From a virus (Duplodnaviria; Heunggongvirae; Uroviricota; Caudoviricetes), in IMG/VR virus record IMGVR_UViG_643348545_000009, positions 1 through 53,655 of that record: a DNA stretch of 53,655 bases; one strand, written 5' to 3'. The notes beneath the pieces were generated by a model, which was not told where the DNA came from, did no database searches, and saw only the letters and a program-made list of their open reading frames with translations. The translations under genes were made by a program, and so were the position numbers. Positions 10,103 to 22,721 of this stretch are shown here, in pieces (position 1 is the first letter of the stretch; every line of letters begins with the position of its first letter).

Positions 10103-11017
10103 TCAGTAGCGATGCAGTGAAGGCGGCAACTCTTTGTTCTTAAGCCTTTCCCACGCCAGAAGGTTCGTCGGCCCGTCAGGCTCATAAATATCTATATCCC
10201 GCGTGTGATTAATTAAAACGCCCCTCGCCCTCCCGATGGTATACGAGAACTCATAGCCGTAGTCGTGGCATATGCCGGAATAGCCAGACTGAATCAGTTT
10301 TAATGCGGGATACAACTCACGGAACAATGCCTGTGAGCGGTTAGCATAATCCCATAGCCATACAAGGCTGTTTGCTTCTTTTGCGGAAAGCTCGTTGGTG
10401 CTCTTCTCTTGTTTGCCGATTAACTCTCCTTCAAGCGGAACGCGAGCAGCAAGTGACAGAGCTTCGGTAAACTGCTCCTCGCTGATTTCTTTGTACGAAC
10501 ATCCAAAATGTGATTTCAGTGACGACCACATGGTGATCATCGCCTTCGCCTGTTTTTCCTTTGGCAGAGACTGACCGCGACTCATGACGAGTTGTTTAAT
10601 GGCTTCCTGCTGTTCAGTAGTGATTTTCCCCGGCAACGCCTTTTTAGCTTTCAGTGTATTTCCGTAAGACCCCGTTTTACGAATGGATGGCAAAACTTCA
10701 GCTGTCACCCATTTGCGGAATTTGTGCGGGACTGAACCTTTATTGACGGCATCGCGGCAACGCAGAACCAATGTATACATACCTGATTCGCTCACAATGC
10801 TTAAATTCTGCTCACCACCAAGGGTGTAACTTAAAGTTACTCCCTTTTCATCGTCATCAAGTGCAGTAAGCGCCTTGCGTGAGTTAGTCAGATTTAAAGC
10901 ATCACAAACATCTTTTGCTACAAACCACGGCTCACCGCACTTGTTGATGACGCGGATTTCACTGTCGCCGAATTTGAAGATGGTGAAATCGTTTTGTGCC
11001 TTTGCTATACTTTTCAT
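10103..11017 (-). CDS. ant: Phage antirepressor (Ant; Bro-N N-terminal domain)
   Basis: 304-aa ORF; N-terminal [30 protein letters not shown] resembles Bro-N/antirepressor domain; downstream of an Arc-like gene as in P22 immI. Confidence 0.85.
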
Positions 11018-11079
11018 GTCAATATTTCCTAATCCGATTTGTTGATACCGAAGCCCTGACTGTTACAGCAGTTGGGGCT

Positions 11080-11220
11080 TCAACTTTTTAGGCTGCGAAT
11101 AAGACGCTGCACTATTTCTGAATTTAAAGACCTGCCCTCCTCCTTAGCCTTTTCCTTCAATTTTTCTTTAATCTCTGGCGGGATACGAATCCCTAATGGA
11201 GCGATATCTCTAACTTTCAT
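11080..11220 (-). CDS. arc: Arc-like ribbon-helix-helix repressor
   Basis: 46-aa product MKVRDIAPLGIRIPPEIKEKLKEKAKEEGRSLNSEIVQRLIRSLKS resembles P22 Arc (…NGRSVNSEIYQRV…); internal ATG at 11218-11220 chosen over the longer ORF. Confidence 0.7.
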   Translation of the reverse strand: MKVRDIAPLGIRIPPEIKEKLKEKAKEEGRSLNSEIVQRLIRSLKS

Positions 11221-11330
11221 TTCTTTCCCAATTGCTACACCGTGATAACTAAATACTACACCGTGCTTATTTAAAGTCAAAGTTTTTTTGCCTACACTGT
11301 GTAGCAATGCTACAGCGTGCAGGAGGAAAA
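11221..11330. promoter_or_regulatory. Divergent arc/mnt control region with repeated operator-like motifs
   Basis: CTACACNGTG-like motif four times (11235-11244, 11256-11265, 11292-11301, 11311-11320); palindrome CTACAC-T-GTGTAG at 11292-11304; ATTGCTACAC at 11231-11240 is the inverted repeat of GTGTAGCAAT at 11299-11308. Confidence 0.5.
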
Positions 11331-11579
11331 ATGAAAGGTGCAAGAGATATCAGTCCCTTGGGAATTAGGATTCCAGACTATTTAAAGAAACGCATTCAGC
11401 AGGAAGCGGATAAAAACGGCAGATCAATGAACTCAGAGATTGTGCTTATCCTTCAAAAACATGTTGATAATCTTGATGGCCCTCGCTCACTTGAAGGATT
11501 CGCTAACCAAGAAGCTGACAAATTCAAAGAGGCGCTGCTTGAGACGCTAAAGACCATGTATGGTAAGGATGAAAAATAA
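11331..11579 (+). CDS. mnt: Mnt-like ribbon-helix-helix repressor
   Basis: MKGARDISPLGIRIPDYLKKRIQQEADKNGRSMNSEIVLILQ… resembles P22 Mnt (…NGRSMNSELLQIV…); AGGAGG 5 nt upstream of ATG 11331; divergent from arc-ant. Confidence 0.7.
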   Translation: MKGARDISPLGIRIPDYLKKRIQQEADKNGRSMNSEIVLILQKHVDNLDGPRSLEGFANQEADKFKEALLETLKTMYGKDEK

Positions 11580-12115
11580 TGCTGCACACAATTCATTTCT
11601 TATGCCCCGTTAACACTGCCACTGTTGGGCAACTTCAGAACCACTGTCTCACCGCATTATCTCAAGGCGCAACTGAATTAAATATCCATATATCAAGTCA
11701 GGGAGGGGAAACTGCCGCTGGCTTTACTGCGTATAACTTTCTTAAGTCACTCCCTGTTACCGTTAGAACTCACAACATAAGCAATGTTGAATCCATAGCT
11801 AATATCGTTTTCCTGGCTGGCTCAGAACGTTTCGCAAACCCATTATCAAGATTCCTGTTACATCCTCTATTATGGGTCTTTGCCACCCCAGCCGCCGACC
11901 ATGCCAGATTGAGAGAGTACGGGAAATGCCTCGATAACGATCTTGATCGCTTCGTTGAGACGTTCAATATCGACATCGGAACCCATATTAGGTGGGCATC
12001 CCTGATAGCAGACTCGACCATTTTGGATGCTAACAAGGCTCTTGAGCATGGCATAATTAATTCCATAAAAACTGCAAGGCTGGTATCCAATCAGGCAAAC
12101 TGGTGGGTTGTTTGA
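11579..12115 (+). CDS. ClpP-fold serine peptidase homologue, translationally coupled to mnt
   Basis: 178-aa ORF; ISSQGGETAAGFTAYNFL…SNVESIANIVFLAG…RFANPLSRFLLHPL aligns with the ClpP core (INSPGG…GQAASMGAFLLTAG…RFCLPNSRVMIHQP) with Ser and His retained; start ATG overlaps mnt stop (TAATG). Confidence 0.6.
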   Translation: MLHTIHFLCPVNTATVGQLQNHCLTALSQGATELNIHISSQGGETAAGFTAYNFLKSLPVTVRTHNISNVESIANIVFLAGSERFANPLSRFLLHPLLWVFATPAADHARLREYGKCLDNDLDRFVETFNIDIGTHIRWASLIADSTILDANKALEHGIINSIKTARLVSNQANWWVV

Positions 12116-13066: not shown

Positions 13067-14230
13067 TCAGAACTGATAAGTCATACCAACAGCAACGATA
13101 TCATCCGTTGCAATGCCCGCATCCCTGGTAAACTTATTCTCATCAACCAGATTGATTTTATAATCAACATAGGTGGACATATTTTTATTGAAGTAATATT
13201 TCGCACCTACGTCAACATACTTAACCAAATCCTGGTCACCATAGTTTTTACCACCTACAATGACATCCTGAGCACGAGACTGCAGGAATGCCAGAGATGG
13301 ACGCAGACCGAAATCAAACTGATACTGCAGTACCGCTTCAAAGTTTTGCGCTTTATCTGCAACTCCTTTATCACCAAAGGTCGTCAGATTCTGAGTTTCG
13401 GAATATGTTGTAGCCAGGTAAAGGTTGTCAGCATCGTATTTTAGTCCGACTCCCCACATCTCAGCGTGTTTACCTTTTGCAACACTACCGGAATCAACAA
13501 CGATCTGCTTTTCAGTCACTTTACCGGTTAAAGGATCAGTTTGTTCAATCGTCAGAGTACCATTCAGACCTTTTTCCTGATTATTGGTTCGGTCCGCATT
13601 AATATATGCGGCAACGATACCAAAACCTTCATATTCATAACTGGCTGAGAAACCGTGACCATCACCATTAGCTTTCCGGAGATCACCCCGATCATTTTTA
13701 CCCTGGTACTGTGCCGCAAAATTCAGGCCATCGACAAGCCCAAAGAAATCTGTATTACGATAGGTTAATACCCCGGAAGTACGGGCTGTCATGAAGTTAT
13801 CGGTCTGGGTCCAGCCATCACCGCCAAACTCTGGTAATACGTCAGTATAAGAACCAACATCGTACGCAATACCATAGTTACGACCATAATCAATGGTGCC
13901 AAACTCACCAAACTTCAGACCTGCAAATGCAAGACGGGTTTTATTACCCGCAGCACCCTCTGATTCAGCTTTATTACCAGAGAACTGATATTCCCACTGA
14001 CCAAAACCAGTCAACTGGTCATTAATCTGAGTTTCACCTTTAAAGCCCAGACGTGCGTATGTCTTATCTCCATCATCCCCCTTATCACTGGAGAAATAAT
14101 GGAGTGCAGTTGCACGCCCATACACATCAAGTTTATTGCCATCTTTATTGTATACTTCTGCAGCCTGCGCCCCCGCTGCAAAAATTACAGCTGCTGCCAC
14201 AGCTGAAAGTGCCACTGTCATTTTTTTCAT
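13067..14230 (-). CDS. General porin, OmpC/OmpF/NmpC/Lc family (phage-borne moron)
   Basis: 387 aa; signal peptide ending AQA; porin motifs throughout; C-terminal …VAVGMTYQF aromatic terminus; AAGGA upstream of ATG; AT-rich own promoter region 14231-14436. Confidence 0.9.
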
Positions 14231-14436: not shown

Positions 14437-14778
14437 TTATCTTATTACCTGTTCCATCATACAACTGAAATCGCTGTACCTGGCGTTATCCGTAATACTC
14501 CACTCCCGGCACACCACCCTGACCGTCCGGTTATGTTTCGGCGGTCGCCACAAAAAGGCACGGTAACCACCATGCCACGATAAAAATTCATCCAGCCAGC
14601 GCCGGGTCGCCTCATCCGTCACCCGGAACACTGCCTGAAATGTCTTCAGTCTGGCATTAAGTCCCGTCGGTCGGCGCTGTTCATAACCGTCACCAAACCG
14701 GACCCTCACCACCGACGGTTTCTCACTCACCTGCATCCCTTCACGCGGGACCAGATGCAGCGTTTTTATCTCAGCCAC
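14437..14778 (-). CDS. M: Minor tail protein M
   Basis: …VVRVRFGDGYEQRRPTGLNARLKTF… matches lambda gpM (…VRKVRFGDGYSQRAPAGLNANLKTY…); GTG start overlaps H stop, internal ATG possible. Confidence 0.85.
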   Translation of the reverse strand: MAEIKTLHLVPREGMQVSEKPSVVRVRFGDGYEQRRPTGLNARLKTFQAVFRVTDEATRRWLDEFLSWHGGYRAFLWRPPKHNRTVRVVCREWSITDNARYSDFSCMMEQVIR

Positions 14779-17700
14779 TCAGCATTCCTCCGTCTCGTCG
14801 CATGGACAGCATCACCGCCTGCACCCGCTGGTCAATCAGCTGAACAAGGCTGCCTGCCGCCTCCGGCCCTATCTGACCGTTGGCCCCGTCATTCTGAATG
14901 GCGATGTGGTAGACCGGGGAATACACCAGACCCGCACTCCCGTTCATCCTGCCCACGGCACGTACGCCCAGCGAGCCATCCGCCGCCCGGGTCAGGGGCA
15001 TTATGGCTTCAGGTCCGGCTTCCCCCATCAGCCCGGCCCCTTTTGCAAAGGCAAAGTACGTGGGCGTATCCACAATGCTGTTGCTGTACGCACTCAGGTT
15101 TGCCGAGGTATACACACCGCCTTTTGCATTCGCCATCGCGCCGCTCAGCCAGCTGCCGATACTGCCCGTTATTCCCCCTGCACCGGACATGCTGTTTGCC
15201 GCCATCTTAATGCCGTTGACAATGGCCGCATTCATAAGAACTTTTGATATTTCCTGCAGTACGGATGAGGCCCAGTTGCGCCATTCCACTTTGTTTCCGT
15301 TCAGCATCTCCGTGATGTTATTCACCAGTCCTGAAATCCCCTCCGTTGCCAGCTGTGCTGCCTGAGAGGCGTAATCGGATGCACTGTCCACCCAGTTACT
15401 GAGCCCCTCCTGCAGCCCTTTCTGCCAGTCCGCACGTTGTTCATCCGACCGGGCATAAAAGGCTTCCTGGTCTTTCAGGCGTTCGCTCAGATACTGCGCA
15501 TTCTGTGCCAGTGCCTGTCTGTAAAAATTCTCACTGATATCCCCGGTCTGATACTGAGACTGAAGGTCCGCATCCTTCTGGCGGAAACTGTCGCGGATCT
15601 GCTGCAACTCCCGCATGCGTTCCCTGGCTCGTTCCCCCTGCCCGTATCCCAGCAGTTCAGCGTCATTTGACGCACGCGCAGCCGCATTCTCATTCTTCAG
15701 TGTCTCCTCCCGGGACTGCAACTGTTCCCGGATTTTTTGCTGGTCAATCAGGGCAGCATTGCGCAGCAGTTCCTGCTTCTGTATCTCCGTCAGGGTTTTC
15801 AGTTCGCCCTGCGCTGTCTGGTATTTCAGCTTCGCCAGCTCTGTATTCTGACCCGCCAGTGCCAGTTGCTCTTTCTGCTGCTTCAGCAGCCGGGAAAAAC
15901 TGTCTTCTGCTTTTTCCGTCTCTGATTTTCTGCCCCGGGATTTGGGTTTATTCGCCTCGTTATTACGCCAGGCTTCCAGGGCATTACTGATGTAACGCTG
16001 TCGTGCCTCCTGATATGAATCCCCCACAAAACCAAGGTCATCCGTCGCATATCCCAGCCGGGCGCGCTCTTTTTCTTCCCCTTTCAGTCGTGACAGGGCC
16101 AGTTGACGCTCCGTGTTATTCAGGGCGCTCTGCTGTTTATTATCCAGAGTAGCCTGTGGCAGTCGCAGCGGTACACTCACCAGTCCCTGACGCTGCTCCA
16201 GCAGTTCATTACCCAGCCCCAGCAGGCGGTTGAACTCCGTATGCTGGCCGTTCATGACCAGCAGTGACTGATACGCTTTATTCTGCTCTGCCGCCTGCTG
16301 ACGAATTAACGCCACACGGCGATCTTCCAGTCCGGCAAGCACATCCTGAATGGACTGCGCCTTTTCCTGCATCTGTGCCAGACGGGACTGCTCAACAGCA
16401 AGCTGCTCTGTTGCCTGAGCAAGCCCTTCCGTTACAGTTTTCACCGAGGTCAGATGGTTTATCATGAAGCCGTTACCGGTCGTCCAGCCCGGATTAGCCA
16501 GCACATACTGATACCCGGCGATTTTTTCCTGCAGGGATTTCACCCGGCTGGCGTGCTCATCAATCAGCCTGTTCTGCTCTGTCAGCGCCTCCCGTGTTCG
16601 CCCTTCATTATCTGAGGCTTCAGGCAGAGACATTGACGGCATTTTATGTGCGATTTCATCAATCGTCAGTGCATACTGGCGCGCAGACTCCCTGGCCTGC
16701 TCCTGATTCTGGTACAGCGTGTACCATGCGGCAGCTCCCAGCATCACCAGTCCGGGTACGCCTCCAGCCAGTCCCAGCGCACCGCTCATCAGACGTGAGC
16801 CCACCGCCGTTGTACTGTTCAGCGCATTCTGGGCGGCGGTTCTGGCTGCAATATTTCTGTTCAGACGTTCCTGTGTGACCGCCAGACGGGCCTCTGCGGC
16901 AATCTGCATCTCCGTCCCGCGGGCTGCCGCCACAGCCTGCTGAGCCCGGTACACGGCTGCCCTTGCCCGCGCCGTGGCAATCTGTGTTCCCCTTAACTGG
17001 GCCTCAGCCAGTGCCACTTCATTACGTGCGGCGGTCACAAGTCCTGCCGTCGCAGACATCGCTCCGGAGGCCAGATTACCAAAGTACCGGGCCACCCCGA
17101 CGGCAACCAGCACACCGGCTGCTGACGCCACATTATCAATATTACCGGCAACACTGTTCAGCACACCAGAGAGCGTTTTTGTCGCACCGCTGGCTTCATT
17201 CGCGCCACCCACCCAGGCCATAAAAGCGTTTTCCACCTTCGTGATACTGCCGGACACCGTTTCCGGCATGGCCACATATTCATCACGTAATGCGCCCAGC
17301 TGGCTGATTAACGCCGGGACAACTTTATCGGTGGTCAGTTTGCCGTCGTTCGCCATCGCCTTCAGGTCTTTACGCGCCACGCCCAGTCCCGCTGCCAGTG
17401 CCCGGATCACCCGGTCACCATTTTCATTAACCGAATTAAATTCCTCGCCGCGCAACACACCCTGTGCCAGCGCCTGACTGAACTGGGTGATCACCGAACC
17501 CGCCTCTGCCGTACTGGCACCAGAAATTTTCAGCCCCGTGGAAATGGCTTCCGTCACCTTCAGGACATCACCGGCACTGTAACCATATTCACGCATTGAG
17601 GCCGCAGAACGGGCAAACAACGCCGCATTATCCGAAAATGACGTCCCCGTCCGCTGGCTGATATCCATCAGCACTTTCTGTGATGACGAAAACTCATCCG

Positions 17701-18013
17701 ATGACTGCGACGCCTGTTTCAGACGGGCATTCACGGAGCTCCATTCATCCGCCAGCGAGATCAGGTGTCCTGTGGCAAAGGCCCCGGCAAACGCTCCCAC
17801 CGTTCCGACAGCCGAAGCGCGGATCTCCGTCAGCTGACTGTTCAGCTCCGCCAGGGCGCGCCGCTGCTCCCGGGCCGCTGCGGCAGCCTGACGCCCGCCA
17901 TTCTGCAGGGTACGGTAATATTCACTACCCATACGGGAAGCCCGCTGGATCTCCGACTGGAATGACTGTGAATTTGCCGAAATTTTGATAATCAGTTCAC
18001 GTAACGTCGCCAT
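14771..18013 (-). CDS. H: Tail tape measure protein H
   Basis: 1080-aa largely alpha-helical/coiled-coil ORF between G/T and M; ATG at 18011-18013. Confidence 0.9.
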   Translation of the reverse strand: MATLRELIIKISANSQSFQSEIQRASRMGSEYYRTLQNGGRQAAAAAREQRRALAELNSQLTEIRASAVGTVGAFAGAFATGHLISLADEWSSVNARLKQASQSSDEFSSSQKVLMDISQRTGTSFSDNAALFARSAASMREYGYSAGDVLKVTEAISTGLKISGASTAEAGSVITQFSQALAQGVLRGEEFNSVNENGDRVIRALAAGLGVARKDLKAMANDGKLTTDKVVPALISQLGALRDEYVAMPETVSGSITKVENAFMAWVGGANEASGATKTLSGVLNSVAGNIDNVASAAGVLVAVGVARYFGNLASGAMSATAGLVTAARNEVALAEAQLRGTQIATARARAAVYRAQQAVAAARGTEMQIAAEARLAVTQERLNRNIAARTAAQNALNSTTAVGSRLMSGALGLAGGVPGLVMLGAAAWYTLYQNQEQARESARQYALTIDEIAHKMPSMSLPEASDNEGRTREALTEQNRLIDEHASRVKSLQEKIAGYQYVLANPGWTTGNGFMINHLTSVKTVTEGLAQATEQLAVEQSRLAQMQEKAQSIQDVLAGLEDRRVALIRQQAAEQNKAYQSLLVMNGQHTEFNRLLGLGNELLEQRQGLVSVPLRLPQATLDNKQQSALNNTERQLALSRLKGEEKERARLGYATDDLGFVGDSYQEARQRYISNALEAWRNNEANKPKSRGRKSETEKAEDSFSRLLKQQKEQLALAGQNTELAKLKYQTAQGELKTLTEIQKQELLRNAALIDQQKIREQLQSREETLKNENAAARASNDAELLGYGQGERARERMRELQQIRDSFRQKDADLQSQYQTGDISENFYRQALAQNAQYLSERLKDQEAFYARSDEQRADWQKGLQEGLSNWVDSASDYASQAAQLATEGISGLVNNITEMLNGNKVEWRNWASSVLQEISKVLMNAAIVNGIKMAANSMSGAGGITGSIGSWLSGAMANAKGGVYTSANLSAYSNSIVDTPTYFAFAKGAGLMGEAGPEAIMPLTRAADGSLGVRAVGRMNGSAGLVYSPVYHIAIQNDGANGQIGPEAAGSLVQLIDQRVQAVMLSMRRDGGMLSG

Positions 18014-18030
18014 TCACCTTTCTCCGGGCG

Positions 18031-18055
18031 AAAAAAAACCTGCCGCAGCAGGTTT
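18031..18055 (-). terminator. Intrinsic terminator downstream of lipoprotein moron
   Basis: Hairpin AACCTGC-TGCGG-CAGGTT followed on the minus strand by an 8-U run, immediately upstream of H. Confidence 0.55.
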
Positions 18056-18076
18056 TATTCATCAGCAGATTATTGA

Positions 18077-18490
18077 TTAAGTTTCGGGTACCAGCCCGGG
18101 ATTCAGACTTCCCGGACTCAGTGTATACATGCCGCCATTGAATGGGTCCACAAGCAACCAGCCAACAATACCACCAAAGACAAAGTTACCACCAATATAC
18201 CAGCCATTAGCCGATGCCTTGATCGGCAGCGTTACGGGCTGATAATTCTCTTTACTGAATGTGATCTGATAACTCTTTTTCCCGAAGTAACTGCCATCTG
18301 ATTTTTCAAGTGTTACATTCTGCGGTGTTTTACCCGAAGAAATTGTTTTCCCTGACTCATCTTTAATAATAAAATCCGCGCCAGCCGGATTACTGTTTAC
18401 CTGTACAGTCTGCGTTTTATCTCCGACAATGGTTGCACACCCCGTCAGAAAAAAACTTACAGAGAAAATCAACAACATGAATTTCTTCAT
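18077..18490 (-). CDS. Lipoprotein moron (unknown function) between H and G/T
   Basis: 137 aa; signal peptide with lipobox LTGC; C-terminal Gly-rich hydrophobic segment; followed by its own terminator. Confidence 0.6.
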   Translation of the reverse strand: MKKFMLLIFSVSFFLTGCATIVGDKTQTVQVNSNPAGADFIIKDESGKTISSGKTPQNVTLEKSDGSYFGKKSYQITFSKENYQPVTLPIKASANGWYIGGNFVFGGIVGWLLVDPFNGGMYTLSPGSLNPGLVPET

Positions 18491-18553
18491 AAAATAACTC
18501 CATTCAGTTAATTTCCCCCAAAAATACTGTAATAAATACCCGCAAGGTTGACA

Positions 18554-18868
18554 TTAATTCTCTGAGGCAAATAACAGAGCATTTTCCAGCTCTGCAAACG
18601 GATCCATCTCCTGCTTGTCCTCATCCTCGCCCCAGCAGAGCATGGCATCCTTCAGTGCAACGTTCATTCCCTGCGCCCCGAAAACCGCTTTCACGATCTG
18701 CGCATTACGGATATCCCCGCGCTCATCGCCCAGCGGAGACACCCTGTCGAACTCCATCCACATCATCGCTTCACTCGCACTCAGGCTATGCCGCAGTTCG
18801 GATAACGTGCGCCCCAGACGGAGCGCAAGTCGCATCAGAAAGCGTATTTCCGGGCGGGCTACTTTTTT
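18554..18868 (-). CDS. T: T segment of tail assembly chaperone G-T, expressed by -1 frameshift from G
   Basis: -1 frame ORF continues past the G stop; slippery heptamer A_AAA_AAG at 18862-18868 (minus strand …GCC AGA AAA AAG TAG). Confidence 0.65.
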   Translation of the reverse strand, partial: KKVARPEIRFLMRLALRLGRTLSELRHSLSASEAMMWMEFDRVSPLGDERGDIRNAQIVKAVFGAQGMNVALKDAMLCWGEDEDKQEMDPFAELENALLFASEN

Positions 18869-19233
18869 CTGGCCGCCTCTGCATCAGCGATCAGATCCAG
18901 TGCCTGACGCAGCAACCGGGCATGTACCGGACCATAGACGACCAGCACCTGCTCCCGATCGTCCGCAGTGAACACCCGCTGCAGATCCGTATCACACAGC
19001 ACATCGCAGAACAGCGTCACATCCGCTTCCAGATTACGGCGGGTTTTCGCCACCACCGACAGAGGTTCGTCACCCGTATCACCGTCATTAAGCACTTCCC
19101 GCCACAGATACCAGGCCTCTGCCGAAGGTTCCCGCAGCACCACGCTGACATTTTCCCATTCAGGCACCCGCACCGTTTTATGACGAAACCCTGACAGTCT
19201 GGCCAGCGCCAGCGTTTTCAGATCCTTTTTCAT
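18859..19233 (-). CDS. G: Tail assembly chaperone G
   Basis: 124-aa acidic ORF between V and H ending at the slippery site; ATG at 19231-19233. Confidence 0.75.
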   Translation of the reverse strand: MKKDLKTLALARLSGFRHKTVRVPEWENVSVVLREPSAEAWYLWREVLNDGDTGDEPLSVVAKTRRNLEADVTLFCDVLCDTDLQRVFTADDREQVLVVYGPVHARLLRQALDLIADAEAARKK

Positions 19234-19247
19234 GATGACCCATCCCC

Positions 19248-19964
19248 TTATCCGGCGGCTGCGCTCACAGTCACGGTGCATTCAACAGACGTCACACTCT
19301 GTGCCCTCTCTGCCGAATCGGTCACCACGCAGGTATATTTCCCCGCATCGGCGGACTGCGCGTTTGGCTTACTGAAGGTGTCAGCCGTCTGCCCCTCAAC
19401 CGGCTGACCGTCCTTCTTCCAGGCGTATTTATACGGCGGCGTTCCCCCGTTGACACTGACTGACATTGTCAGCAGCGCACCAGTATTCACGGCAAGTGTC
19501 TTCTCCAGATTTTTCACAAACGCCAGCGGTACCACATAGAACATCGGTTTGCCTTTCAGGCGCAGTGAAAACGTTGCAGCCACCACGCCGTTGGTACCGG
19601 ATGACCAGGTGTGCTGACGCACTTCCGCCAGGAACTTAAAGCCCTTACCGGACGGAAACTGCACCTTAAACGCATACACCGTGTCATTGTCATAGGCATC
19701 ACGCAGGGCGTTCTGGGCCTGATTCAGATAAAAATTACCCGACATGGAAATCTCGGACGACGCCCCCAGACCGTTGATGTTCTCCTGCTCTGTGGAGCAG
19801 AGCGTGGTCACATCAATATCCTGTTTCTGACCGGCGGTGAACTGGACTTCCTTGATGGTGCAGTCCAGGCGCAGATATTCCGCCTTATCCATAGTTTCAG
19901 CAGTCGCCGGGGCAGATGAAATCATCACCTGCGTCAGCTGTGAGCGTTCATACAAAGCAGACAT
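19248..19964 (-). CDS. V: Major tail protein V with C-terminal Ig-like domain
   Basis: 238 aa; C-terminal …TMSVSVNGGTPPYKYAWKKDGQPV…YTCVVTDSA… Big_2/Ig-like pattern; AGGAGG upstream of ATG. Confidence 0.9.
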   Translation of the reverse strand: MSALYERSQLTQVMISSAPATAETMDKAEYLRLDCTIKEVQFTAGQKQDIDVTTLCSTEQENINGLGASSEISMSGNFYLNQAQNALRDAYDNDTVYAFKVQFPSGKGFKFLAEVRQHTWSSGTNGVVAATFSLRLKGKPMFYVVPLAFVKNLEKTLAVNTGALLTMSVSVNGGTPPYKYAWKKDGQPVEGQTADTFSKPNAQSADAGKYTCVVTDSAERAQSVTSVECTVTVSAAAG

Positions 19965-21174: not shown

Positions 21175-21501
21175 TCATAACACCGTCGGGCAACGCAAAT
21201 CGTAAATCAGCACGGACACAGAAAACGGCAGTTCCCCCTGCACGAGGTCTTCCCGCTCAGCAAGATCCGGATTCCGGTACAACATCCCGGTCAGGCGCAT
21301 GGCAGCCCCCTTCATCCGGGTTAATGCCTCGCCCGGGATCAGTTCACCGTCCTCACGGATCACCCTATCCCGGCTGCCCTGAATGTAGGCCAGCAGCACA
21401 GCTGTAGCCTGACGAACCTTGTCCATCAGCATGTCATCATCCGCGTCATGGTCAACACGCAAATGTGCCTTGATTTCTTCCAGTGTCAGTAATGCCGTCA
21501 T
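21175..21501 (-). CDS. gp6-like head-tail connector protein
   Basis: 108 aa; MTALLTLEEIKAHLRVDHDADDDMLMDKV… typical gp6-like N-terminus. Confidence 0.65.
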   Translation of the reverse strand: MTALLTLEEIKAHLRVDHDADDDMLMDKVRQATAVLLAYIQGSRDRVIREDGELIPGEALTRMKGAAMRLTGMLYRNPDLAEREDLVQGELPFSVSVLIYDLRCPTVL

Positions 21502-22721
21502 TTTCCGCCTCCTGCATCCCGCCCACGTTTTGCAGCCAGAGTCCAGCCGGATGAATGAATGTCTCCGGGCTTATCGCCGGTCATGCTGTTGCAGTGCCAC
21601 AACGAGCCGCCCCACGTCACTGTATCGCCGGGGTGGTAGATTTCACCGGCTCTGAACACACCGCGGTAGAGCATCACCGGCAGGGAAAATGTTTTTTCCG
21701 TACACTGACCACTGCTCTGCCGGATCACCACAGAGAACGACCGTTCACCAATCATGCTGACGTCAATATCCGCCACCCCGTCAACCAGGCATTCCCATCC
21801 CCGCATCCCGTGCGTTTTTTCATACGCCCGCCAGAGTCCGCCCTGGTGTGTGGCATACGTGCCCCGGGGAAAGGATTTTTGATCGTCAATGGCGGGGAGT
21901 ATTTCCAGTGCCGTGGCATCACGCCCGTCCTGCGGAACCGGCAGGGCACTCACCGCATCATTCACCGCCTTCTGCAGTACATCCGGATCGTAGTCACGAC
22001 CATCACGCGGGACTGGGATATGACTTACGGCCTCTTTCACCATCTGCTCAAGCATCGGACGCACATCATCCGGGGTGATACTTTTTCCGTCCGCCGGTAG
22101 CGGAATATTTGCGACCGCATCATTCACCGCCTTCTGCAGTACATCCGGATCGTAGTCACGACCATCACGCGGGACTGGGATATGACTTACGGCCTCTTTC
22201 ACCATCTGCTCAAGCATCGGACGCACATCATCCGGGGTGATACTTTTTCCGTCCGCCGGTAGCGGAATATTTGCGACCGCATCATTCACCGCCTTCTGCA
22301 GTACATCGGGATCATAGTCACGACCGTCGCGCGGAACAGGAATATGGCTTACCGCCTCCTTCACCATCTGTTCAAGCATCGGACGCACATCATCCGGGGT
22401 GATACTTTTTCCGTCCGCCGGTAGCGGAATATTTGCGACCGCATCATTCACCGCCTTCTGCAGAACATCGGGATCATAGTCACGACCATCACGCGGTACC
22501 GGAATGGCCCCCACCGCATCATCCACCATCGCCTGCAGAACAGAGCGAACCTCATCCAGCGTCACATGCTTCTGTAGTACCGCGGACAGGGAAGCCAGTT
22601 TCTCTTCAGACTGCTGCGCCTGCGCGGCTATTTTCCCCTCAAATGTGCGCTGTAAATCCGCCAGCACTGCGGAAAATTCTTCACCCAGCGCACGGATAAT
22701 GGACAGTTCACGTTCATTCAT
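21498..22721 (-). CDS. Virion-associated protein with tandem 54-aa repeats (head decoration or fibre candidate)
   Basis: 407 aa; coiled-coil N-terminus, about 3.3 copies of IPVPRDGRDYDPDVLQKAVNDAVANIPLPADGKSITPDDVRPMLEQMVKEAVSH, distinct C-terminal domain; sits between portal and connector genes. Confidence 0.55.
   Translation of the reverse strand: MNERELSIIRALGEEFSAVLADLQRTFEGKIAAQAQQSEEKLASLSAVLQKHVTLDEVRSVLQAMVDDAVGAIPVPRDGRDYDPDVLQKAVNDAVANIPLPADGKSITPDDVRPMLEQMVKEAVSHIPVPRDGRDYDPDVLQKAVNDAVANIPLPADGKSITPDDVRPMLEQMVKEAVSHIPVPRDGRDYDPDVLQKAVNDAVANIPLPADGKSITPDDVRPMLEQMVKEAVSHIPVPRDGRDYDPDVLQKAVNDAVSALPVPQDGRDATALEILPAIDDQKSFPRGTYATHQGGLWRAYEKTHGMRGWECLVDGVADIDVSMIGERSFSVVIRQSSGQCTEKTFSLPVMLYRGVFRAGEIYHPGDTVTWGGSLWHCNSMTGDKPGDIHSSGWTLAAKRGRDAGGGK
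21955..22500. repeat. Near-perfect 162-bp tandem repeat, about 3.3 copies, in-frame within the 407-aa CDS
   Basis: Unit boundaries (CATTCACCGCC…) at about 21959, 22121, 22283 and 22445; copies nearly identical. Confidence 0.85.

Follow-up and report, generated by a model that had tools for sequence, protein, structure and literature searches.

A single-gene lipoprotein moron at the T/tape-measure junction of a lambdoid prophage, and its candidate role at the outer membrane

The window, i.e., the whole stretch of DNA analyzed here, comprises the 53,655 nucleotides (nt) of IMG/VR virus record IMGVR_UViG_643348545_000009 (positions 1 to 53,655). Its tail operon, which reads on the minus strand, contains a 137 amino acid lipoprotein gene between the tail gene T and the gene for the tape-measure protein (TMP). 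This lipoprotein gene, horizontally acquired, is a true one-gene insertion into the tail operon of a lambdoid prophage. The features of the gene and of its immediate surroundings are listed here by position.

18077..18490, minus strand: lipoprotein coding sequence, 137 amino acids, phrog_6823 family, from the open reading frame (ORF) list, its translation, and a full-length phrog_6823 match
18437..18490, minus strand: signal peptide (residues 1-17) and lipobox LTGC with Cys18, from the translation and the family invariants
18209..18415, minus strand: predicted PEGA-like beta-sandwich, residues 26-94
18125..18208, minus strand: aromatic and glycine-rich hydrophobic motif NGWYIGGNFVFGGIVGWLLVDPFNGGMY, residues 95-122, the densest invariant block of the family
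18498..18501, minus strand: Shine-Dalgarno sequence GGAG, 7 nt 5' of the ATG, read from the sequence
18526..18554, minus strand: candidate cassette promoter, with -35-like ATGTCA (18549-18554), a 17-nt spacer, and -10-like TACAGT (18526-18531), chosen on its conserved -10-like hexamer
18031..18056, minus strand: intrinsic-terminator hairpin, stem 18035-18056 and U-run to 18031, found by folding, between the lipoprotein stop and TMP start codons

A first-pass annotation had described the gene as encoding a 137 amino acid lipoprotein with the lipobox LTGC, and that description held. The product opens with MKKFMLLIFSVSFFLTGC, followed by ATIVGD, and it has the layout expected of a lipoprotein precursor: a charged n-region (MKK), a hydrophobic h-region (FMLLIFSVSFF), and then LTG-C18, which fits the lipobox pattern [LVI][ASTVI][GAS]C within ~35 residues. 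In an alignment of 33 family sequences, Cys18 was invariant, as were A19, T20, I21, and G23, and Gly17 was at least 90% conserved; the residue at position +2 is Ala. Homologues of the lipoprotein number in the hundreds by sequence search, and both the reading frame and the lipobox were intact in every copy examined. The lipoprotein gene has a dN/dS (ratio of nonsynonymous to synonymous substitution rates) of 0.09-0.12 relative to its close alleles, and it is thus under purifying selection. The ORF is real and did not arise by chance.

Whether the gene is a moron was judged in the sense of Juhala et al. (2000) and of Cumby, Davidson and Maxwell (2012). The backbone genes and junction features that bear on this question are as follows.

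19248..19964, minus strand: major tail gene, upstream of G
18859..19281, minus strand: G, tail chaperone (Phage_TAC_1, E 1.4e-56, and PHROG)
18862-18868, minus strand: slippery heptamer A_AAA_AAG at the end of G, from the sequence
18554..18835, minus strand: T (Phage_tail_T, E 1.7e-18, and PHROG)
18554..18590, minus strand: right-hand mosaic junction, the last ~12 T codons reading ELENALLFASEN versus ALEDALSLAAMS in insert-less relatives
14771..18013, minus strand: TMP, 1080 amino acids (ORF; the identical gene in public contigs matches TMP families of Pfam)
14437..14778, minus strand: M, downstream of the TMP gene

The placement of the lipoprotein gene between the TMP gene and G/T, as first described, is confirmed by the Pfam matches of G and T and by the TMP ORF, and the slippery heptamer in G is, as expected, what a G-T frameshift pair would carry. 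When positions 17900-18700 were compared with phage records by megablast, 92 Shiga toxin (Stx)-type or related phages matched both flanks at ~94%, but not the middle; their two matched pieces span ~312 bp, versus 801 bp in the window. The prophage of Escherichia coli JNEC-KY203 is 98.3% identical over the adjoining 6.2 kb of the tail region, yet it is without the insert and has a T-TMP gap of 47 nt. Alignments with BP-4795 and KY203 give an insert of ~0.5 kb, whose left junction falls directly past the hairpin and whose right junction falls within the last ~12 codons of T. The insert was present in only 5 of 5426 complete E. coli genomes, at 95-97% identity and always at the T/TMP junction. 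In a public assembly collection, 710 blocks index the identical protein, which, wherever examined, had the same prophage context, including that of E. coli ED1a (CU928162.2). We call the gene a true insertion because neither the 92 related Stx-type phages nor the 98%-identical prophage has it.

Base composition also sets the gene apart. A GC trough of 0.38-0.43 runs across it, with flanks of 0.57-0.60; the ORF itself has a GC content of 0.43 versus 0.56-0.58 in the surrounding genes, and GC3 (the GC content at third codon positions) is 0.44 versus 0.63-0.66. The first-pass annotation's moron status is therefore borne out: this is a single gene of deviant base composition, it is extra DNA relative to close relatives in which the gene order is otherwise kept, and it is followed by a terminator.

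That terminator had been called the moron's own strong terminator, which is only half right. The hairpin at 18031-18056 is indeed strong, having a 9-bp GC-containing stem, a 4-nt loop, and a U-run; a 67-nt fold gave a free energy of -20.3 kcal/mol and a z-score of -2.6 versus shuffles, and its stability is more than chance. The same hairpin, though, lies at the T/TMP junction of two insert-less relatives: BP-4795, where it differs once in the loop, and E. coli JNEC-KY203, where a variant form is found. Because it is present in insert-less relatives, the terminator is a backbone feature of the T/TMP junction and was not imported with the moron. In moron-less relatives (L017, L099), the hairpin may be an attenuator of TMP expression; alternatively, it may have been left behind as morons came and went, or it may mark a site at which recombination inserts cassettes. 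An intrinsic terminator, each time with a different sequence, was found 3' of every cassette copy examined.

No site upstream of the lipoprotein gene passed a promoter scan with a threshold of 9 of 12 matches. The best -35/-10 pair in the window has 8 of 12 matches, and its TACAGT ends 35 nt before the ATG. A TAnnnT hexamer about 35 nt 5' of the ATG is conserved in cassette copies from unrelated slots, where it is followed by GTTTCyGATT in most other copies and by ATTTTTGGGGG in the copy of the window. We infer that the TAnnnT region is a cassette-borne candidate promoter and 5' untranslated region, and judged by sequence, the sister copies in other slots appear to possess both the promoter and the terminator of a moron.

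The lipoprotein belongs to a single family. It matches the profile of phrog_6823 at E 5.1e-73, residues 2-137 aligning with profile positions 1-136 of 139; this was its sole PHROG assignment, and the family is annotated in PHROG as of unknown function. A profile search of 1.84 billion representative proteins returned 5465 clusters at E <= 1e-3, with 2042 passing E <= 1e-10; the clusters are spread over the Gamma-, Beta-, Delta-, and Zetaproteobacteria, and most are 135-180 amino acids long and cover the whole profile. A subfamily of ~170 amino acids (P0108, P0114, P0117, P0119, P0120, and many more representatives) has a conserved C-terminal extension, ...SIVLIQDVPxxLRxxMxxIN, and some other members have long Pro/Ala-rich tails.

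The homology and structure-prediction check proposed in the first-pass annotation thus led to phrog_6823 and to a predicted PEGA-like beta-sandwich. Pfam PEGA (PF08308) matched residues 27-91 with 18.2 bits and E 0.0024, which is below its gathering threshold of 20.8. The PEGA motifs S-x-P-x-G-A and G-x-T-P are conserved, as SNPAGA at residues 33-38 and GKTP at residues 53-56, and AlphaFold2 modeled residues 26-94 as a confident beta-sandwich with a predicted local distance difference test score (pLDDT) mostly >90. The remainder of the model consists of two short, low-confidence helices (residues 97-105 and 108-113, pLDDT ~52) and a strand at residues 122-125 (pLDDT 85) that packs back onto the beta-sandwich. 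The fold predicted by the model is PEGA-like. In the Pfam scan, only the sub-threshold PEGA match was obtained and no glycine-zipper family; the NCBIfam scan yielded matches only at the level of the signal peptide. None of the PADLOC-DB 2.0 defense models matched the lipoprotein at E <= 1, a search of PDB chain sequences gave no meaningful match, and a literature search, which took in PEGA lipoproteins, epsilon34 gene 15, and lipoprotein morons at the TMP junction, found no paper on the phrog_6823 lipoprotein family. Identity as an o-spanin was rejected, the NCBIfam spanin2 match (E 0.08) covering the signal peptide only and the gene lying outside the lysis cassette.

The glycine-rich hydrophobic C-terminal segment of the first description is present as well, at residues 96-114 (GWYIGGNFVFGGIVGWLLV), and it lies in the best-conserved part of the family. 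Across the 33-sequence alignment, the C-terminal consensus N95-G-W-Y-I-G-G-N-x-x-F-G-G-x-x-G-W-x-x-V-D-P-x-N-G-x-M-Y122 is near-invariant, and this block of residues 95-122, together with the C-A-T-I-x-G that follows the lipidation site, is the best conserved of the family's regions.

By the +2 rule of Lol sorting, an outer-membrane location is predicted because the +2 residue is an invariant Ala, within the equally invariant C-A-T-I, and the lipoprotein probably goes to the inner face of that membrane. The glycine-rich segment might instead have been a stop-transfer helix in the inner membrane. This was rejected: the mean Kyte-Doolittle hydropathy of residues 96-114 is only ~1.36 over 19 residues (summed by hand), under the value usual for a classical transmembrane helix. 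An inner-membrane anchor is also opposed by the strand after the segment, which packs back on the sandwich, and by family member P0141, in which the chain runs on into a beta-barrel of the OmpA-like outer-membrane type (E 2.3e-15), a fusion that would be impossible with a segment crossing the inner membrane. Taken together, these points lead us to infer that the segment is a hairpin, re-entrant or oligomerizing, on the inner face of the outer membrane. Its ends carry aromatic residues (W97/Y98 and W111) that fit an interfacial position, and the alternation of W-I-G-F-F versus Y-G-N-V would also suit a beta-hairpin; the AlphaFold2 model is compatible with either form.

The slot in which the gene lies is a classical one. 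It had been supposed in the first-pass annotation to be normally occupied only by tail assembly genes, which is wrong because the gene 15 moron of HK97, the founding moron and a superinfection-exclusion gene, holds the same position. In the HK97 genome, gp15, annotated as a "moron product", is flanked by the G-T frameshift product and the tape-measure gene, and a putative terminator precedes the latter; it was for this gene 15 element that the word "moron" was first used (gp15 authors, PMC3594210). HK022 and HK97 have further annotated morons at K/I and I/J. In phage T5 (L191, 23778-24530), the tail chaperone genes are separated from the tape-measure gene by an endonuclease gene with a putative terminator, so the chaperone/TMP junction takes extra genes in unrelated siphophages too.

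Phage copies of the lipoprotein gene were surveyed at 80 IMG/VR loci, and chromosomal copies at 80 species-level genome loci. Most of the IMG/VR loci (67/80) were P22-like, with the lipoprotein gene between the ejection gene 16 and mnt, and 12 were siphophage loci with the gene at T/TMP. The lambdoid T/TMP set includes phages whose TMPs are only 48-58% identical to that of the window and whose lipoproteins are 68-69% identical. Annotated phage homologues are gene 15 of Salmonella phage epsilon34 and those of Gally and vB_EcoP-720R6. Prophages of Proteus carry a 64%-identical copy directly upstream of the TMP gene, next to a different chaperone family; terminators flank this copy on both sides, and a promoter-like site ends ~35 nt before its ATG. 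These 67 P22-like loci were tested for sieA of type A only, and it was found in none of them. A reverse ORF beside the homologue in P22-like prophages of E. coli was considered as a possible SieA and rejected; it encodes another, unrelated lipoprotein, phrog_6067 (MKRSLLIIPLLLVGC...), which is divergent from the homologue beside it in the gene 16-mnt region (L011, 5381-5866, minus strand; L002, 4378-4893, minus strand).

Six of the 80 species-level genome loci lay in prophage tail regions, at K/I (L101), at I/J (L110, L112, and L114), between TMP and L (L102), and upstream of TMP (L103); the K/I, I/J, and TMP..L copies are in other Enterobacterales. The cassette is mobile and prefers moron slots at the junctions of the tail and DNA-delivery operons of temperate phages.

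The remaining 74 genome loci had no phage markers and no conserved neighbor. A conserved partner gene was sought across all 80 genome loci and none was found, the best neighbor family occurring in 8/80. In six Photorhabdus species (L106, L109, L113, L115, L117, L118), the family gene is at a fixed chromosomal position, between neighbors that we take to be rimJ-like and murJ-like genes (named by the E. coli proteins); the fixed position suggests that the Photorhabdus copy is a vertically inherited core gene. In Actinobacillus succinogenes (L008-L010, 6001-8364), the homologue lies directly upstream of genes for a TbpB/fHbp-like lipoprotein and Slam, on the same strand. A Slam/TbpB-like partnership was treated as coincidental, as the arrangement did not recur in other genera.

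The prophage of the window has further insertions in its tail operon. A second moron, between M and L, is a 387 amino acid OmpC-like porin gene (13067-14230, minus strand, GC 0.44; phrog_410, E 5e-193), annotated as "porin OmpC" in a near-identical prophage. It is absent from relatives such as STEC299 and locus L184, and because of these relatives it is seen to vary independently of the lipoprotein gene. A third insertion, between L and K (~10103-12115), contains genes for an Ant-like antirepressor (10103-11017, minus strand), an Arc-like protein (11307-11579, plus strand), and a ClpP-like protein (11579-12115, plus strand), the annotation being taken from the 98%-identical KY203 prophage. Elsewhere, a tandem repeat of 162 bp (3.4 copies, 96% match, 21952-22496), encoding 54 amino acid units, lies inside a 407 amino acid ORF (21498-22721, minus strand) between the portal and head-tail connector genes; the length of this ORF product is 299, 353, 371, or 407 amino acids among near-identical prophages.

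The reading that we favor, at a probability of roughly 0.4, is that the moron encodes an outer-membrane envelope factor made by the prophage, the leading role of which would be interference with phage entry. Temperate phages would have taken the gene from a large lipoprotein family whose chromosomal members stand alone, and the cassette would then have moved among the classical moron slots in their tail and DNA-delivery operons. The lipoprotein would be expressed in the lysogen, with late lytic growth adding read-through from the late operon. Its precursor would be cleaved and lipidated at Cys18, and the Lol pathway would then deliver the protein to the outer membrane, on its inner face. There the PEGA-like beta-sandwich would face the periplasm, and the C-terminal hairpin, rich in aromatic residues and glycine, would reach into the membrane or hold copies of the protein together. 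The envelope of the lysogen would thereby be altered, and entry of other phages hindered at the outer membrane or in the periplasm, either by masking of a receptor or by obstruction of the trans-envelope DNA conduit.

Phage-entry exclusion, the kind of role raised in the first-pass annotation, has circumstantial support from position. It is ranked first among the specific functions, if only tentatively, because two of the slots house proven DNA-conduit exclusion genes (those for gp15 and SieA) and because lipoprotein entry blockers have precedent in Cor, Llp, and Ltp. A bolder form of the exclusion reading, which we consider rather improbable, is that the family may be a new class of outer-membrane lipoproteins, with a hairpin that inserts and oligomerizes, captured repeatedly by phages of two tail types as a broad-spectrum gate that blocks the trans-envelope DNA conduit. 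The hairpin may then form an alpha-hairpin ring like that of SlyB or a beta-hairpin barrel like that of CsgG, and the conduit may be blocked whether it is made of tape-measure protein or of P22-type ejection proteins; such a gate may be the Gram-negative outer-membrane counterpart of Ltp, gp15, and SieA.

Some observations weigh against entry exclusion, and they are the same ones that raise its closest competitor: the family is huge and overwhelmingly chromosomal, Photorhabdus has an apparently vertically inherited copy, and a general envelope function fits these facts equally well. An envelope-stabilizing or host-fitness role is therefore ranked close behind phage-entry exclusion, even if on our own estimate it is unlikely to be the correct one. 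The protein would here be an outer-membrane lipoprotein that stabilizes the membrane or its proteins under stress, or that raises serum resistance, and the lysogen would be the fitter for it. Such a role would suit a family of 5465 clusters in four proteobacterial classes and a gene that stands alone, its best neighbor family being found at only 8/80 loci, with syntenic and apparently vertical inheritance in Photorhabdus; it would also explain how one protein can serve phages with unrelated entry machines. The combination of lipid anchor, beta-sandwich, and glycine-rich hairpin parallels SlyB/YfgH (bioRxiv 10.64898/2025.12.22.696046), Bor is a precedent for a lipoprotein moron that helps the host, and the same prophage carries the OmpC-like porin moron. 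Against this, SlyB, YfgH, and Bor were matched neither in sequence nor in fold, none of them being among the structure matches listed, and the order of the domains is reversed relative to SlyB. Host fitness also leaves unexplained the marked preference of the cassette for slots beside DNA-delivery genes.

A third possibility is a lytic role of the kind played by Llp of phage T5, a lipoprotein that masks the receptor so that progeny avoid adsorbing to debris. The moron would be co-transcribed late, and with the receptor masked on the dying cell and its debris, progeny virions would not be wasted. In the window no terminator separates T from the lipoprotein gene and the spacer is only 63 nt, from which it follows that antiterminated late transcription must read through the gene. 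The Proteus cassette, however, is insulated by an upstream as well as a downstream terminator, the P22-like copies sit in the prophage-expressed "ant moron" region, and the carrier phages differ in their receptors (J proteins of siphophages versus O-antigen tailspikes of podophages). We regard a role of this kind as quite improbable. That the gene is a neutral or decaying passenger without function for phage or host is least credible of all: although it is rare (5/5426 complete E. coli genomes) and dispensable, because near-identical prophages are without it, its dN/dS is ~0.1, the frame and lipobox are intact in all copies examined, the identical protein occurs in 710 public assembly blocks, and the lipoprotein is better conserved than the flanking tail genes.

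The moron slot is classical and the family is large and known. The main value of the locus is that its protein, as a candidate for a new exclusion or envelope factor of the outer membrane, can be put to the test, with the help of natural isogenic prophage pairs that have and lack the gene. Such near-identical pairs make the locus a clean experiment of nature, whatever the function proves to be. If the exclusion reading is true, an outer-membrane lipoprotein unrelated to Cor and Llp joins the short list of entry blockers, and phrog_6823, with its thousands of uncharacterized proteobacterial members, gains a first function; if the protein stabilizes the envelope instead, the SlyB/YfgH theme is extended to prophage cargo. 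Being found in at least five classical moron slots of sipho- and podophages, the cassette is also a handy model of moron movement and of why morons favor junctions beside DNA-delivery genes.

Several known systems resemble the moron in part. One is Ltp of phage TP-J34 of Streptococcus thermophilus, which was set apart by description only; it has a Gram-positive host and an unrelated helix-turn-helix-repeat fold. Bor of lambda, and Iss, represent a lipoprotein moron of prophages whose effect is on the host envelope, as serum resistance, but they belong to another Pfam family (PF06291) and lie in another genome region, beside the lysis genes. No homology to Bor past the signal-peptide region was found: hhalign aligned residues 1-37 only, with a probability of 65%, and there was no Pfam match.

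Cor (of phi80, N15, and HK022) and Llp (of T5), which block FhuA, are also small phage-encoded outer-membrane lipoproteins, and Cor is a tail-region moron. Both differ from the present protein in being 77 amino acids long and in being without the PEGA-like domain and the C-terminal motif. The first-pass annotation had judged the lipoprotein to be recognizably neither Cor nor Llp, and we agree: an hhalign comparison of the family profile with HK022 Cor aligned only residues 1-22, and that with T5 Llp likewise only residues 1-22, so that no homology past the signal peptide was found for either, and PHROG gave family 6823 alone.

SlyB and YfgH are built from the parts that the lipoprotein is predicted to have: a lipid anchor at the N-terminus, a beta-rich domain in the periplasm, and a hydrophobic hairpin rich in glycine. 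Their glycine zipper is embedded in the outer membrane, where they form rings around outer-membrane proteins (bioRxiv 10.64898/2025.12.22.696046), which is a precedent for such a hairpin in Lol-sorted lipoproteins. There is no detectable homology, the order of the parts is reversed, and GxxxG zippers stand against a motif rich in W, Y, and F with an invariant Asn. The resemblance is thus architectural only.

Two exclusion systems share slots with the cassette. SieA of P22 is prophage-expressed and acts on the DNA-delivery conduit (PMC10883804). Its gene is in the gene 16-mnt region, where homologues of the lipoprotein sit in other P22-like phages, but SieA spans the inner membrane as a polytopic protein and is not similar to the lipoprotein. 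HK97 gene 15 matches in slot (G/G-T chaperone genes on one side, the tape-measure gene on the other), in being a single small gene, and in having a terminator just before the TMP gene. Its product gp15 is a prophage-expressed superinfection-exclusion protein that blocks DNA entry (PMC3594210); it is a 62 amino acid inner-membrane protein, in contrast to the 137 amino acid predicted outer-membrane lipoprotein, and a BLASTP comparison for gp15 or YebO-like homology gave no alignment at E <= 100.

Related by sequence are epsilon34 gene 15 and its counterparts in Gally and vB_EcoP-720R6. The epsilon34 gene has been placed in the "ant moron", where P22 has sieA, and its function was reported as unknown (PMC2629481). 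These phages are short-tailed, and their copies lie between gene 16 and mnt rather than in a siphophage tail operon. They are nevertheless true homologues, 68-69% identical over the full length and with the same lipobox and C-terminal motif, and they too are cassettes of one gene, each ending in a terminator of its own, that lie in an accessory region (the "ant moron").

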